DNA from: Desulfurivibrio sp.
Lineage (GTDB): Bacteria; Desulfobacterota; Desulfobulbia; Desulfobulbales; SURF-16
NCBI GenBank assembly: GCA_003605035.1
Contig: QZKJ01000118.1
Coordinates: 18,304 to 82,303 of the forward strand
Reading direction: 5' to 3'
Length of the DNA: 64,000 nucleotides
Every line of letters starts with the position of its first letter. Within the stretch, counting starts at the first letter, position 1. Shown in pieces: positions 31,878-41,265 of this stretch. The notes under the pieces are model-generated. The model ran no database searches, was not told the DNA's origin, and saw only the letters and a list, made by a program, of their open reading frames with translations. The position numbers were made by a program, and so were the translations under genes.

Positions 31878-31956
31878 AACGTTGTAGCGTCCGAACGTTC
31901 CAGCGTTTCAGTGATCAAACGTTTGAACGTTGCAACGTTACACCGTTTGAACCTTT
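31877..31956. repeat. tandem array of ~10 units of an 8-bp repeat (core AACGTT)
   Basis: AAACGTTG TAGCGTCC GAACGTTC CAGCGTTT CAGTGATC AAACGTTT GAACGTTG CAACGTTA CACCGTTT GAACCTTT. The array fills the whole convergent spacer between the pfk stop and the malQ stop. Confidence 0.85.
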
Positions 31957-33857
31957 CATTCCCCTGCCGACTCCAGTTGCCGGATTAGTTCGTCACGGCT
32001 GCTTCCTCCTGCTTCCCGCCTTCCGGCCCGGAGCGCCATGGCCAGGGCTCCGGGGATGTGCAGAGCGCGGCCCTGGCCGGCCAGCTCCGGGTAACGCTGG
32101 CGGAAATCCGGCGTAATCCGCAGGGACCAGTTGTGGTCGCCTGTTGTGCCCGGAATATTGTAGGCCTCCTCGATGCCGAACAGATCGGTGAAAAAGAGCA
32201 TGACGTTTGTTCCCGGCCCGACAAAGAGATCGGCGAATTTGGCCTGGGCGAGCGCTCCGGCTGCAGACGCAGTGCGTTCTATCCATTCTGCCCGTTCGCG
32301 CTCGGGGATGCGCAGCCGCTCCGCCAGATAGGCGGCCTGCCGGTCTGCGACGCCCGAAGCAACCCATTGTCCGGCCAGCTGCCAGATCGACGGGGTATCA
32401 TGATTGCCCAGCATCAGCCAGTCTTCCGGCCGGGCGTTTTCGCTGCGGTAGACATCGCGGGGGTTGTCCAGGTCCGCCTTCTGGGTAACCCGGAAACGGC
32501 CGAGTCCGTGACGCGCCATCACCTGGCGGATCGGGCAGGGCTGGGTGCTGAGAATTTCGCAGGAGATCTCGCAGACGCCGCGGCAGTTGTCCCGGGCCGA
32601 TTCCATCACCATCTCAAAGAGCGCGGCATAGCGGTCGATCTGTTCCGGCTCCAGCTGCCGGACCCAGTCGTCATCCCAGCGTCTGGCCGCGGGGTTGAGC
32701 TGCCCGGGCCGGGCAATGGCAAAGGGGGCCAGCTCCGGATGATCGGCCAGGTTCGGGGAGGCGAAGAGCCGGGCGCCCTGCTGCACGGCCAGGATGGGGT
32801 CCGGCTGACCGGCGCGGTAGACCCATGGGCAGATGAGACCATGGGGGTGATCGATGCGCAGCCCTTCGTATTCTTCAAACAGTTTGTCAATCCTGGCCCG
32901 GAAGAAACGAAGCGCCGGGCCGGGCCGGCCATCCGACTGGTGATACCGGCGCGGATCGAGCACCGCGTAGTTCCACGGCTGGCCGGCCGGGTTGGTGCGG
33001 CTCGGCGGGGCGCCCATCACGTAATCGCGCAGCAGAAAGGACCGGGCATACCACGCGTCGCGGCCGGATAGGCCGATCTGGCAGTCACCGAACAGGTTGA
33101 GGCCGCGCAGGCCGCAGCCCAGCCTGAACTCCCGGTGCAGCTCGGCCAGCAGGAACTGGATGAAACAGTATTCGTCGATCTCCGCCTGATGACATGTACG
33201 CAGCTCGGCCAGCCTCTGGCGGGCCGCCTCTTCCTGACCTCTGGCCGGCGCGAAGAGACTCTGGTCCAGTCCTGCCTGGCCGTCTTCTCCCCAGTGCCGC
33301 CAGTTGCGGCCGTGGTAGCGGCGGCGGAGGATTTCATAGCAGCCGTCCCGCTCCAGCCAGTCGGCATGGCGGCGCCGGAAGGCGGCAAAGGCCTCCTGCT
33401 GCTCCAAAGACCCTGCGCTGAAACGGTGGCGCGCCTCCTGTTCGATAACCGCGATGGCCCGGGCGGCAAAGAGTGACTGGACGCGGTTTGCCGGCAGGGG
33501 CCGCTGGGCGGCCAGCCCGGCCAGTTGATCAGCGGCCAGTAGATTCCAGGGCGGCTCGCACAGACGCAGGGTGGCCAGGGAGAGGGGATTTCTGGAAAAC
33601 AGGCTGCCGTCGTAGGGGGAGGGATTGGCCGGGGTGGTGATGCCCTGGGGGCCGAGCTGGATGCCGTTAAAGCCCAGGATCCGGGCAAAGTCCAGAAAAT
33701 CGGCCGCCCCCCTGGAATAGGGCGAGCCGCGGCCGATGTCCTCCTCCGGCCGGCTGGGAAAGGCGGCGTCATGCATGCCCAGCAGAAAGTTGTGGATGCC
33801 GAGCACCTGCAGCGCCTCCTTTACCGCCGGCCTCAGTTTTTCAAAATGTTCGATCAT
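31956..33857 (-). CDS. malQ: 4-alpha-glucanotransferase (amylomaltase, GH77)
   Basis: 633 aa. GH77-like catalytic motifs GLRIDHPHGL and MLGNHDTPS. Sits within the glucan locus. Confidence 0.8.
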   Translation of the reverse strand: MIEHFEKLRPAVKEALQVLGIHNFLLGMHDAAFPSRPEEDIGRGSPYSRGAADFLDFARILGFNGIQLGPQGITTPANPSPYDGSLFSRNPLSLATLRLCEPPWNLLAADQLAGLAAQRPLPANRVQSLFAARAIAVIEQEARHRFSAGSLEQQEAFAAFRRRHADWLERDGCYEILRRRYHGRNWRHWGEDGQAGLDQSLFAPARGQEEAARQRLAELRTCHQAEIDEYCFIQFLLAELHREFRLGCGLRGLNLFGDCQIGLSGRDAWYARSFLLRDYVMGAPPSRTNPAGQPWNYAVLDPRRYHQSDGRPGPALRFFRARIDKLFEEYEGLRIDHPHGLICPWVYRAGQPDPILAVQQGARLFASPNLADHPELAPFAIARPGQLNPAARRWDDDWVRQLEPEQIDRYAALFEMVMESARDNCRGVCEISCEILSTQPCPIRQVMARHGLGRFRVTQKADLDNPRDVYRSENARPEDWLMLGNHDTPSIWQLAGQWVASGVADRQAAYLAERLRIPERERAEWIERTASAAGALAQAKFADLFVGPGTNVMLFFTDLFGIEEAYNIPGTTGDHNWSLRITPDFRQRYPELAGQGRALHIPGALAMALRAGRREAGGSSRDELIRQLESAGE

Positions 33858-33858
33858 G

Positions 33859-33929
33859 AACCCAATAACCCAACCAACCCAACCAACCCAATCAACCCAA
33901 TTAACCCAATCAACCCAATCAACCCAACC
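33859..33929 (-). repeat. tandem array of ~8 units of a 9-bp repeat (plus strand AACCCAAYC; mRNA strand TTGGGTTGR) spanning the glgB stop to the malQ start
   Basis: AACCCAAT AACCCAACC AACCCAACC AACCCAATC AACCCAATT AACCCAATC AACCCAATC AACCCAACC CCCCC. The glgB stop codon (33919-33921) lies inside the array, and the malQ ATG (33857) is 2 nt from its end. Confidence 0.9.
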
Positions 33930-35813
33930 CCCCCTTCAGCCGAAACACCACCACAGCCAGGGGCGGCAGGGTGATATTGATCGACTGGTACTGGCCGTGC
34001 ATGGCCACCGGGGTCGCCTCCACCCCGCCCAGGTTGCCCTGGCCGCTGCCGCCGTAGAGGGTGGCGTCGCTGTTTATCCGCTCCTCCCAGTAGCCCGGTT
34101 CCGGCACCCCCAGTCGGTAGTTGTGGCGGGGTACCGGGGTGAAGTTGGCGATGCAGACCAGGATGTCACGGCTGTCCCTGCCCCGGCGCAGGAAACTGAC
34201 GATGCTCTGGTTATGGTCGGTGCAGTCGATCCAGGCAAAGCCGGCCTGGTCGAAATCAAGCTCGTGCAGGGCAGGCTCACCGCGCAGAAAGGTGTTGAGG
34301 TCCCGCACCCAGCGCTGCATCCCCTGGTGCAAGGGATACTGCAGGTGGGACCAGGCGATGCCGGCATCATGGTTCCATTCCGGCCACTGGGCGATTTCAT
34401 TGCCCATGAACAGCAGCTTCTTGCCCGGGTGGGTGTACATGTAGCCGTACAGCAGCCGCAGGTTGGCGAACTTGCGCCACTCGTCCCCCGGCATCCTGGC
34501 GATCATCGAGCCCTTGCCGTGGACCACCTCGTCGTGGGAAATGGGCAGCACGAAATTCTCCTGAAAGGCGTAGAGCAGGCTGAAGGTGAGGTTATGGTGG
34601 TGATGGGGGCGGTGAATCGGGTCCTTGCCCATGTAAAGCAGGGTGTCGTGCATCCAGCCCATGTTCCACTTGAAGCCGAAGCCGAGCCCCCCCACATAGG
34701 TCGGCCGGGAGACCATGGGCCAGGCGGTGGACTCCTCGGCCATGGTTATGATGTCCGGATGTTCCGCGTAGACCAGCTCGTTGAAGCGCTTGATGAAGGT
34801 GATGGCCTCCAGGTTTTCGCGGCCGCCGTAACGGTTGGGAATCCATTCCCCCTCCTTGCGGGAATAGTCGAGGTAGAGCATGGAGGCCACCGCATCCACC
34901 CGCAGGCCGTCGATATGGTAGACCTCCAGCCAGAACAGGGCGTTGCTCAGCAGGAAGTTGGCCACCTCGCGCCGGCCGAAGTTGAAGATGAAGGTGCCCC
35001 AGTCCTGGTGCTCGCCCTGGCGGGGGTCGGCATGCTCGTAGAGATGGGTGCCGTCAAAGTAGCCGAGGCCGTGGGCGTCACGGGGGAAATGGGCCGGCAC
35101 CCAGTCGAGAATGACGCCGATGCCGTGCCGGTGCAGGGTGTCGATCAGGTACATGAAGTCCTGGGGGGTGCCGAACCGGCTGGTGGGGGCGAAATAGCCG
35201 ATGGTCTGGTAGCCCCAGGAGCCGTCAAAGGGATGTTCGTTGATCGGCAGCAGCTCCACATGGGTGAAGCCCAGGTGACTGACGTATTCGGCCAGTCTGC
35301 CGGCCATGTCCCGGTAAGTGAGAAAGCCTCCTTCTTCGTCGCGCATCCAGGAGCCGAGATGCACCTCGTAGATGGCGATCGGCGCGTCGATCCGGTGGCG
35401 CTCGGCCCGGGAGGCCAGCCATTCACTGTCCTGCCACTGGTAGCCGGCGAGATCCCAGACGATGGAGGCGGTAGCCGGCCGTATTTCAAAAAAGAAGGAA
35501 TAGGGATCGGCCTTCTGCATCCGGTAACCCTGGTACTGGGAGGTAATATCGAACTTGTACAGGGCGCCTTGACCGATGCCGGGCACAAAGCCCTGCCAGT
35601 GGCCGGTGTCGCCGGTGTTTTGCAGCACATTGGCAGTCGGGTCCCATTTGTTGAAATCACCGACCACCGCTACCCGGGAGGCGTTGGGGGCCCAGACCGC
35701 GAAATGGGTGCCCTGGCCAACGGGATGGGCGCCGAGTTTCTCCCAGGCCCGGTAATGGGTGCCCTCGGCCAGCAGGTGCAGGTCGTAGTCGCTCAGAAAA
35801 TCCTTGCTTGCAT

Positions 35814-35817
<4 letters not shown>
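33919..35817 (-). CDS. glgB: 1,4-alpha-glucan branching enzyme
   Basis: 632 aa. GH13 motifs [40 protein letters not shown]. Confidence 0.93.
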
Positions 35818-39161
<3,344 letters not shown>

Positions 39162-39171
39162 CGGCTCTCCT

Positions 39172-39251
39172 TAAGCGTTACAGCGTTTCAACGTTTCAAC
39201 GCTCGAACGCTCGAACGCTTAAACGTTTGAACGCTTGATCGCTTGAACGTC
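39172..39251. repeat. tandem array of 10 units of an 8-bp repeat (core AACGYT) between the glgE stop and the treS start
   Basis: TAAGCGTT ACAGCGTT TCAACGTT TCAACGCT CGAACGCT CGAACGCT TAAACGTT TGAACGCT TGATCGCT TGAACGTC. The array ends 1 nt from the treS SD (GGAGAG on the minus strand). Confidence 0.9.
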
Positions 39252-39255
39252 TTTC

Positions 39256-41265
39256 CTACATAAAGTAATCGAAATCGTGCTCGGTGCGCAAGCGCCGCCG
39301 TACCCGGAAGATCTGGGCCGGGGAGGAGGCGGGATCGAGCCGGACGTAATTGCGGCTGCCCTGCCACAGGTAGCGGCTGTCGCCGATCAGCTCGTGGACC
39401 TGGTAGATCTCGTTGTCAGCGATGGCCAGTTCCTCCAGGGGCACCTCCAGCCAGCCTTCCTGCACATGGTGGGGGTCGAGGTTGACCGCCGCCAGGATGA
39501 TGTTGCTCAGGTCCTCGGTGTGCTTGCCGTAGAAAAGCAACTGCTCATTATCCACCGGGTAGAAGGCCAGTCCGCGGTTGGCGGCCAGGGCGGCATTTTC
39601 CCGGCGGATGCGGTTGATTCTGGCGATAAAGGCGCGCAGGTTGCCGGGACTGCTCCAGTCCCGCGGTTTGATCTCGAATTTTTCCGAATTGAGATATTCC
39701 TCGCTGCCCGGCAGGGCCTCGTTTTCCAGCAGTTCAAAGCCGCTGTAAATGCCGTAGCTGGCCGACAGGGTGGCGGCCAGCACCAGGCGGGTCATGAAGG
39801 CCGGCCGGCCGCCGAACTGCAGATATTCGGGCAGGATGTCCGGGGTGTTGGCAAAGAAGTTGGGCCGGAAATATTCGTAGACCTCGGTGTTGACCAGTTC
39901 CTGCAGATACTCGGTCAGCTGCCATTTGGTGTTTCGCCAGGTGAAATAGGTATAGGACTGACTGAAGCCGGCCTTGGCCAGGGCATACATGACCCGGGGC
40001 CGGGTAAAGGCCTCGGAGAGAAAGACGGTGTCCGGATAATCGCGGCGCACCTCGCTGATCAGCCATCCCCAGAAGCGCAGGGGCTTGGTGTGGGGATTAT
40101 CCACCCGGAAGATCCGCACCCCGCGGTCGATCCAGAAGAGGACCACGCTTTTCAGTTCCAGCCACAGGGACTGCCACTCCTGGCAGTCGAAGTTGAGCGG
40201 GTAGATATCCTCGTATCGTTTCGGTGGATTTTCGGCGAATTTGATGGTGCCGTCCGGCCGGTGCCGGAACCATTCCGGATGTTCGCGCACGTAAGGATGA
40301 TCCGGCGAACACTGGAAGGCGAGATCCAGGGCCAGGGTCAGTCCCTGTCTGCCGGCGGATTCGAGCAGGGCGTCAAAGTCCGCCAGGGTACCGAGGTCAG
40401 GATGCACATCCTTGTGGCCCCCCGCCTCGGAGCCGATGGCCCAGGGGCTGCCGGGGTCCCCCGCTTCCACCGACAGCCGATTGTTGCGGCCTTTGCGGTT
40501 GGTGCGGCCGATGGGATGGATGGGGGGAAGGTAGAGGACGTCGAAGCCGAGACGGGCGATCTCCGGCAGCATCTTTTCCAGGTCGGTAAAGGTGCCGCTC
40601 CGCTCCGGCGAGGAGGTAACGGAACGTGGGAATATTTCATACCAGGCACTGCAGGCGGCAATAACCGGTTCCACGGTCACGACGAGGTGCGGCTCGAAAA
40701 CACTCTCCCGGCTGCGATCAGGATAGCGGCTCATCATGGCGCCGGCATCGGCGGCGGTGGCAAGGGTTACCCGCTCGGCGGCTGATCCGGCGCCCCGCAG
40801 TCTGGCAGCCAGGGCTGAAAGCCACTGACGGTCCGGCTCGGCCGCCCGCCCGAGGGCGGCCTCGATCATGGCCGCGCCTTCCAGTACTTCGCTCTCCACT
40901 GTTTGGCCGGCGGAGAATTTCTTCCGCAGATCCTTCTGCCAGGTGGAAAAATGATCGATCCAGGCCTTGACCGTGTACTCAAAGGTGCCGAGGCTGTCCA
41001 CCGGGAATGCCGCACTCCACCGGTCACCTGCAAGCCGGGCCATGGCGGTTTCCTGCCAGTTCCGCTCAGCCTGCCGGTGGCAGAGGACCGCTTGCACCTC
41101 ATCGTGGCCATCGGCAAAAACAAAGGCTGAAACCTGGACTTTTTCGCCAATGATGCGCTTGATCGGGAAACGGCCGCAATCCACCTGCGGAGAGATGTTT
41201 TCTATCCACACTCTGGCCGCTTTCTCCCTTGGCAGGGGAGGGGGGAGGTTCTGTTCTGCCGGCAT
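39256..41265 (-). CDS. glgE: alpha-1,4-glucan:maltose-1-phosphate maltosyltransferase
   Basis: 669 aa. N-terminal domain IENISPQVDCGRFPIKR and GH13 core GVRIFRVDNPHTKP, characteristic of GlgE. Confidence 0.9.
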   Translation of the reverse strand: MPAEQNLPPPLPREKAARVWIENISPQVDCGRFPIKRIIGEKVQVSAFVFADGHDEVQAVLCHRQAERNWQETAMARLAGDRWSAAFPVDSLGTFEYTVKAWIDHFSTWQKDLRKKFSAGQTVESEVLEGAAMIEAALGRAAEPDRQWLSALAARLRGAGSAAERVTLATAADAGAMMSRYPDRSRESVFEPHLVVTVEPVIAACSAWYEIFPRSVTSSPERSGTFTDLEKMLPEIARLGFDVLYLPPIHPIGRTNRKGRNNRLSVEAGDPGSPWAIGSEAGGHKDVHPDLGTLADFDALLESAGRQGLTLALDLAFQCSPDHPYVREHPEWFRHRPDGTIKFAENPPKRYEDIYPLNFDCQEWQSLWLELKSVVLFWIDRGVRIFRVDNPHTKPLRFWGWLISEVRRDYPDTVFLSEAFTRPRVMYALAKAGFSQSYTYFTWRNTKWQLTEYLQELVNTEVYEYFRPNFFANTPDILPEYLQFGGRPAFMTRLVLAATLSASYGIYSGFELLENEALPGSEEYLNSEKFEIKPRDWSSPGNLRAFIARINRIRRENAALAANRGLAFYPVDNEQLLFYGKHTEDLSNIILAAVNLDPHHVQEGWLEVPLEELAIADNEIYQVHELIGDSRYLWQGSRNYVRLDPASSPAQIFRVRRRLRTEHDFDYFM

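Follow-up and report, generated by a model that had tools for sequence, protein, structure and literature searches.

The GGGNATC heptamer repeats of Xanthomonas and Nostoc are dispersed, non-coding and placed between open reading frames (ORFs) that are aligned, and they form G-quadruplexes (G4s) in vitro (Rehm et al. 2015, PMC4692102). On the coding strand they lie over a stop codon or no more than 50 bp past one, and on the non-coding strand they are found upstream of ORFs (PMC4692102). Heptamer direct repeats of another sequence, TAACTGA, occupy intergenic DNA of marine Beggiatoaceae, cyanobacteria and Bacteroidetes (MacGregor 2015, PMC4679880). G4s located in bacterial 5′ untranslated regions (UTRs) can raise translation (PMC11087576) and can regulate it in either direction (PMC6974567). 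Here we describe a 9-nt tandem array at the junction between glgB and malQ in a draft genome of Desulfurivibrio sp. It lies in a 64,000-nt stretch of contig QZKJ01000118.1, the whole of which is termed the window. The array is one member of a genome-wide repeat population and probably not a dedicated riboregulator of malQ.

The closest described system is that of the GGGNATC repeats and the glgB-malQ array fits that kind. The unit is again short, G-rich and tandem, with at least four tracts of three guanines, and the family to which the array belongs, TTGGGTT followed by two variable bases (TTGGGTT(N2), also called the GGGTT family below), occurs genome-wide, is over-represented in non-coding DNA and sits mostly between co-directional ORFs, with neighbours of mixed function and no link to mobile elements. 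As in Xanthomonas and Nostoc, the G-rich strand at glgB-malQ is the coding strand over the glgB stop. The array differs in that it abuts a start codon with this strand in sense, the rarer orientation in the Rehm study, although across the family seven of the nine arrays that abut a start codon are C-rich in sense and follow the GGGNATC orientation rule. The unit is of 9 nt (some are 8 nt) and the loops of 5-6 nt compare with 4 nt; four units are not preferred, with 8 here and 3-21 in the family; the host is Desulfobulbales-type and the G4 is, in this case, predicted from energy models only.

With the TAACTGA repeats the population shares the property that many intergenic arrays end a few nucleotides upstream of start codons without a Shine-Dalgarno (SD) sequence, as well as downstream genes that lack a functional theme and a patchy phylogenetic distribution. 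The TTGGGTT(N2) unit is different in sequence and length, many unit families are present compared to one dominant unit there, and more than 20 copies are reached. The regulatory G4s of bacterial 5′UTRs likewise place G tracts near a start codon, but those are single, defined, short-loop structures upstream of a ribosome-binding site, whereas the glgB-malQ element lacks an SD, has long loops and represents a single copy of a repeat family. The resemblance to the short tandemly repeated repetitive (STRR) heptamers of cyanobacteria, reportedly described by Mazel and colleagues in 1990, is general only: short tandem unit families are dispersed in intergenic DNA in both cases and both taxon and units differ. 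The REP/BIME elements of enterobacteria have units of 20-40 nt, which are imperfect palindromes mobilised by RAYT transposases. They too are dispersed in operon spacers and between convergent genes, and some GGGTT loci are inverted pairs of arrays, but the units here are of 7-9 nt, non-palindromic and tandem.

Tandem Repeats Finder (TRF) delineates the junction array with a period of 9 nt and 91% matches (Table 1), the unit being AACCCAATC on the plus strand and TTGGGTTGA on the minus strand. The minus-strand sequence from 33855 to 33936 agrees with that transcribed in a preliminary description of the locus, which assigned the repeat to 33857-33936; the array is real, while the outer limit at 33936 falls 2 nt before the G run. 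The sense strand of the mRNA is the G-rich strand and is free of C. No self-complementarity is present in the array, the 9-nt unit being C-free on one strand, and scans of the operon placed no promoter-like or terminator-like site, nor any Rfam family, within it. A chance origin is excluded. Among arrays of period 7-9 nt in 2.56 Mb of first-order Markov sequence, none combined three or more copies with a score of 40 or above, and the top score was 42.

The C-terminus of GlgB reads ...FRLKGGLG followed by the stop, and repeat unit 1 provides the final two codons (Leu-Gly) together with the TGA (33921-33919). Because the 9-nt unit contains TGA, stops recur in series; frame reading bears out the earlier proposal that the array keeps the glgB frame and that three further in-frame stops follow the first. 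The spacer from the glgB stop to the malQ ATG (33857-33855) is 61 nt. Nine tracts of three or more guanines are present at the junction, a G7 run (33934-33928) and eight GGG, separated by loops of 2, 6, 6, 6, 6, 6, 6 and 5 nt. The junction formally conforms to the G3+N1-7 quadruplex rule, as had been noted, but the last tract is 3 nt from the malQ ATG and not 6 nt.

Is an array of this type particular to malQ? The assembly that carries the window (G000; genomes, contigs and loci are designated by G, C and L numbers) is a draft of 4.22 Mb in 118 contigs, with 57% GC. The survey of this assembly covered arrays whose period was 7, 8 or 9 nt and whose copy number was three or more, intergenic status being taken from a codon-usage-trained gene call according to which 20% of G000 is non-coding. 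There are 261 such arrays, 197 of them intergenic; 257 are internal to contigs and 4 are at contig ends. The density is 62 per Mb; 274 kb of sequence from more distant relatives has approximately 7 per Mb, and simulated sequence has none. Coding DNA holds 24% of the 9-nt arrays compared to 8-9% of the 7- and 8-nt arrays, as expected for a mutational process filtered by frame. At least five unit families can be named, but 212 of the 261 arrays belong to no named family. The TTGGGTT(N2) family comprises 14 arrays by TRF, ten of which are intergenic, or, when a regular expression is used, 28 segments without interruption. Among the variant units are GGGTTTGTT, GGGTTGGTT and GGGTTGATT, and there is also a GAG variant of the G tract; uninterrupted stretches hold 3-16 units and the TRF maximum is 21.4 copies. 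Used as a DNA query, the glgB-malQ junction matches more than 12 other places in G000.

The arrays occur in every gene arrangement and in both orientations, at frequencies that roughly follow the background. Within the GGGTT family the mRNA carries the C-rich strand at eight loci and the G-rich strand at four, a split that is not significant. The 9-nt arrays overall display no bias of the sense strand (21 vs 22), and among heptamer arrays G exceeds C in sense (49 vs 21). Conserved flanks of the mobile-element type were not seen around GGGTT arrays. The neighbouring genes are without a common theme, and include those for a sugar transferase/glmS-like pair, two epimerases, asparagine synthase, GNAT, secA-argJ, nitrogenase-type/NifB-like proteins, a TatD/pyridoxal phosphate-binding protein, Cas6, Usp, a type VI secretion sheath (TssC)-hcp and an M23 peptidase-mutL pair. 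In ten cases an array takes up the complete spacer between co-directional genes. One is the M23 peptidase-mutL spacer (G000 C50:11695-11797; L104:2696-2798), filled by 12 copies of 8/9-nt GGGTT units; this is a second case with the G-rich strand in sense and it ends 1 nt before the mutL ATG. The same spacer in G001, G008, G012 and G016 is unique, non-repetitive sequence (about 120 nt in G008). We note that the presence of an array before a mismatch-repair gene, in a genome rich in slippage repeats, is noteworthy in itself.

Comparisons with relatives inform on the earlier state of the junction. A glgB gene adjoins malQ at L007, L008, L010, L014-L016, L020, L021, L038, L039 and in G012, where the two genes overlap (ATGATTGA in G012) or are 4-15 nt apart. 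In these adjacent pairs a G-rich, SD-like stretch lies within the last glgB codons, with examples a few nucleotides before the malQ start in L014 (AAGGGGGGA) and L007 (GGGGAG). Elsewhere, in Desulfobulbales-type relatives, GlgB and MalQ are encoded by a single ORF with a Pro/Ala-rich linker (L011:2027-5920, 1297 residues; L043:518-4480, 1320 residues) and L042 appears to be a fusion too. An array is absent from every related glgB-malQ junction examined and from the fusions, and the junctions have no G4 motif. The position of AAGGGGGGG at the glgB 3′ end of G000, now about 70 nt from the malQ ATG, matches that of the SD in relatives, which would place the array between the old SD/stop region and the malQ start. 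In G001 and G003 another ORF directly follows glgB, and malQ of G001 is on a separate contig. The G000 junction may therefore have originated by rearrangement, a view that also draws on the presence of MalQ in only two of nine genomes of the genus, but the adjacency is widespread in other families and an ancestral tight junction is the simpler account.

On balance, the glgB-malQ array is probably a local expansion of the dispersed TTGGGTT(N2) family, which has proliferated in non-coding DNA. Its membership of the family, the mixed orientation and unrelated neighbours of the members and its absence from related junctions are direct observations. Replication slippage or unequal exchange would have generated the array within, or in place of, a glgB-malQ junction that used to overlap or abut, and the array was probably tolerated rather than selected. 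In the resulting arrangement it gives glgB its end and stop codon, and would have displaced the old ribosome-binding site from malQ. The chief effect would be a looser translational coupling of malQ to glgB. Initiation on malQ would be SD-independent, on a C-free and weakly structured leader, probably at a level below that of glgB, and the quadruplex-forming potential would be a by-product of the unit sequence.

The malQ start is, on comparison with homologues, the ATG at 33857. The N-terminus MIE...RPAVKEAL agrees in length and in the RP.VKEAL motif with L004 and L005, and begins with MIE as in G012. An internal alternative, AAGGAGG-N8-GTG at codon 18 (33804..33821, minus strand), was rejected since all homologues retain the helix xxALxxLGI upstream of that point. 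The statement that malQ has no SD stands, with no AGGA, GGAG or GAGG 4-mer in the 20 nt preceding the ATG. Such a start is ordinary in G000: among 471 genes whose ATG start is unambiguous, only 43% have an SD 4-mer ahead of it, compared to 11% at a control position. Where an array is at least 9 nt from a start, the SD is usually within the gap, and closer arrays are without one. The 3′ end of 16S rRNA was not found in the G000 assembly.

The G4 potential is moderate, with a G4Hunter score of 1.35 over 82 nt and values of 0.92-1.92 in 25-nt windows. ViennaRNA, with G4 terms included, predicts two G4s in the isolated 82-mer at -19.3 kcal/mol, compared to -11.4 kcal/mol without G4. The 5′ structure would be within reach of ribosomes terminating on glgB and the 3′ structure would cover the malQ initiation region. 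In a context of 191 or 271 nt the best structures with and without G4 are equal (-65.64 vs -65.6), since the G run pairs with C-rich glgB codons. The energy models point to only a marginal G4, lost in the context of the mRNA. The preliminary description had suggested that translation of malQ probably depends on the array as a dedicated leader. This is not supported, given the occurrence of the same repeat family across the genome in both orientations and beside unrelated genes, the lack of an array at every related junction examined, the predicted absence of an energy gain in 191-271 nt of mRNA and how unremarkable a missing SD is in this genome.

An RNA G4 could still serve as a riboregulator if the 3′ structure (units 5-8) were to mask the initiation region or, as a bulky barrier, to favour initiation. 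The nine G tracts, the G4Hunter score and the predicted 8 kcal/mol advantage in the isolated 82-mer are in keeping with this, translation can be altered by bacterial 5′UTR G4s (PMC11087576, PMC6974567), and a G-rich coding-strand repeat just past or over a stop is the commonest position of the G4 repeats in Xanthomonas and Nostoc (PMC4692102). We consider such a role unlikely, however, given loops of 5-6 nt, the lack of net gain once 191-271 nt of flanking mRNA are included and the expectation that ribosomes terminating on glgB would unfold the 5′ quadruplex. Moreover, the family more often presents its C-rich strand in mRNA, as do seven of the nine start-abutting arrays, and the element is not conserved, with no G4 at the glgB-malQ junction in any relative. 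Might the arrays instead be platforms for a sequence-specific RNA- or DNA-binding protein, so that the spacer belongs to a post-transcriptional or nucleoid-level regulon of the type proposed for TAACTGA repeats? Recurrence of the TTGGGTT(N2) unit at many loci and in other lineages would suit this, as would the ends of arrays, often a few nucleotides from SD-less start codons, and the retention of certain arrays at orthologous junctions. The idea is doubtful, though, and if anything a shade harder to accept, in view of the many unit families, at least five of them named and with 212 of the 261 arrays outside them all, the spread over both orientations and all gene arrangements in roughly background proportions, and a change of unit family between species at one orthologous junction; a candidate binding protein was not identified.

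Two further possibilities concern reading frames; these frames are largely a consequence of unit composition, and both possibilities are rated low. In one, ribosomes would restart on a TTG that overlaps the glgB stop (TTGA), translate a 22-codon frame as far as its TGA, which shares bases with the malQ ATG (ATGA), and then reinitiate on malQ, restoring an ancestral coupling. The frame is open and in phase throughout, the G7 run is 5 nt upstream of the TTG, and the overlapping or abutting junctions of relatives speak for coupling in the ancestor. Openness and the TTGA overlap are inherent in the unit, which leaves the phase and the ATGA as the sole contingent features, expected by chance about once in 10; initiation at TTG is weak and the mutL array has no such arrangement. 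A relay is considered improbable. The other possibility, and a highly improbable one, is that the G7 run and array form a switchable linker, a +1 frameshift on GGG-GGG fusing GlgB to MalQ through a (Trp-Val-Asp)-type linker. The malQ frame is indeed open over the entire array, starting within the G7 run and reaching the malQ ATG, a run shortened by one G in the DNA or the transcript would likewise fuse the proteins, a downstream quadruplex might help frameshifting, and natural single-ORF GlgB-MalQ proteins (L011, L043) provide a parallel. Two of the three frames of the unit are, however, open by construction, the usual +1 frameshift signals are absent and nothing measured favours this linker. 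As regards a phase-variable contingency locus, the gain or loss of a unit would switch neither a reading frame nor a promoter spacing, since the 9-nt unit keeps all frames and there is no promoter-like site in or near the array. That the array or its copy number is an artefact of assembly, or a collapsed repeat, was a concern raised at the outset and is suggested by the draft state of the genome in 118 contigs. It is barely credible: at 69 nt the array is shorter than a typical read, its four unit variants occur in fixed order and the contig around it is 85 kb long, 257 of the 261 arrays lie away from contig ends, and independently assembled genomes of other species have arrays of these families.

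Local expansion of a dispersed family, the explanation that we prefer, has difficulties of its own. Local slippage alone does not explain why one unit family recurs at numerous loci and also in further lineages of the order (G039, G068), and there may be a seeding mechanism or a shared binding factor for TTGGGTT(N2) units. Certain arrays belonging to other families have been retained at orthologous junctions in species whose flanking proteins are about 89% identical, and function could be the reason. Genes that are essential or housekeeping (glmS-like, argJ, mutL) begin directly behind arrays, and arrays may actively support initiation.

A search pattern of four GGGTT units at 9-nt spacing gives 50 matches in G000, is matched in 4 of 150 other genomes of the order and has no match in four genomes sampled from the same genus. 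Of the 4 matched genomes of the order, G039 and G068 carry arrays with the same TTGGGTT(N2) unit variants (L053, L051, L054), G068 (L054) also having the same composite layout and the inverted G-rich/C-rich pairing. In G048 and G087 the match is to one short array made of different GGGTT units. The GGGTT family seems to have expanded more recently, in the lineage of G000. In samples of two same-genus genomes, 7- and 8-nt arrays are present at 48 and 20 per Mb, with unit families in common with G000. Between the same convergent genes an AACGYT array has 10 units in G001 (L057:16294-16325) and 7 units in G000 (C3:75412-75455), with different unit variants, where the flanking proteins are about 89% identical between the two species. 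The array has thus been kept for a long time while its units turned over. An inverted heptamer pair is found in both compared species with differing copy numbers, and at one orthologous junction a GCCATCA-type heptamer in G006 (L076:11124-11206) corresponds to a CTCACTC-type in G000 (C25:40892-40990). The three orthologous junctions indicate that arrays can persist, change copy number and be replaced. No conspecific sequence was found for comparison with the glgB-malQ array; variability in its copy number, as first suggested, is plausible by analogy with the other G000 arrays that differ in unit number from their orthologues (7 vs 10).

The locus illustrates how repeat expansion can rewrite an operon junction, with a new stop for glgB and malQ separated from its ribosome-binding site, and leave both genes intact. 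At the level of the genus, which is Desulfobulbales-type, there are 20-62 short-period arrays per Mb compared to approximately 7 in more distant relatives. The sharing of unit families between lineages is patchy, and certain arrays are retained at orthologous junctions as copy number changes. A deltaproteobacterial case is thereby added to the repeat families of cyanobacteria, Xanthomonas and Beggiatoaceae. The arrays are natural test cases for SD-independent initiation right after C-free or G-free leaders. The interest is modest for the locus itself and somewhat higher for the genome-wide phenomenon.

Table 1. Features of the glgB-malQ junction and surrounding glucan genes (positions in the window)
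Feature	Position	Strand	Basis
glgB, 1,4-alpha-glucan branching enzyme, 632 residues	33919..35817	-	NCBIfam NF003811, 999 bits (cut-off 741); Pfam CBM_48, Alpha-amylase, Alpha-amylase_C
malQ-like GH77 4-alpha-glucanotransferase, 633 residues	31956..33857	-	Pfam PF02446, 133 bits (cut-off 25)
TreS-maltokinase fusion	35814-39161	-	TIGR02456, 927 bits; TIGR02457, 440 bits
GlgE-like gene	39256-41265	-	62-64% identical counterparts in the same position upstream of treS in relatives
9-nt tandem array, TTGGGTT(N2) units, 7.8 copies, 69 nt	33859..33927	-	TRF score 110; family membership
Three extra glgB-frame stops, one per repeat unit (TGA 33912-33910, TAA 33903-33901, TGA 33894-33892)	33892..33912	-	Frame reading
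AAGGGGGGG, G7 run and two A, probable ancestral malQ SD site in the glgB 3′ end	33928..33936	-	Homologous position in relatives; inference
Array-encoded open frame, 22 codons, possible relay ORF (unproven)	33854..33922	-	Frame F+2

The junction is part of a glucan block. The malQ-like protein scores under the NCBIfam equivalog cut-offs and a profile search gave no family confirmation for the GlgE-like gene. There is no exact match on record to MalQ or GlgB; the closest MalQ shares 61% identity among metagenomes and 74-75% among genomes. The limited occurrence within the genus noted above, two of nine genomes, refers to detection of a malQ-like gene. A phosphofructokinase gene on the plus strand converges on malQ. 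Arrays of 8-nt AACGYT units are located at 31918-31958, in the convergent gap between malQ and this gene, and at 39176-39249, between the GlgE-like gene and treS, such that repeat arrays occupy all three spacers of the block. The orthologous glgE-treS junctions of G001, G003 and G012 have no AACGYT array.

Several other features of G000 were observed. A second glgB paralogue, 54% identical, is encoded at C38:32248-34131. A polysaccharide-type cluster (L098, C53:10000-29614), with genes for a sugar transferase, a glmS-like protein, two epimerases and asparagine synthase, contains 11 or more arrays within 20 kb, including a 21-copy AACCC array and inverted pairs of G-rich and C-rich arrays, potentially long hairpins. 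Finally, purine-rich heptamer arrays of the GAGTCAG/GAGACAG and GTGAGGA types fill operon spacers in sense at C13:30180-30255 and C27:36394-36455, and put serial GGAG motifs immediately before a start codon.

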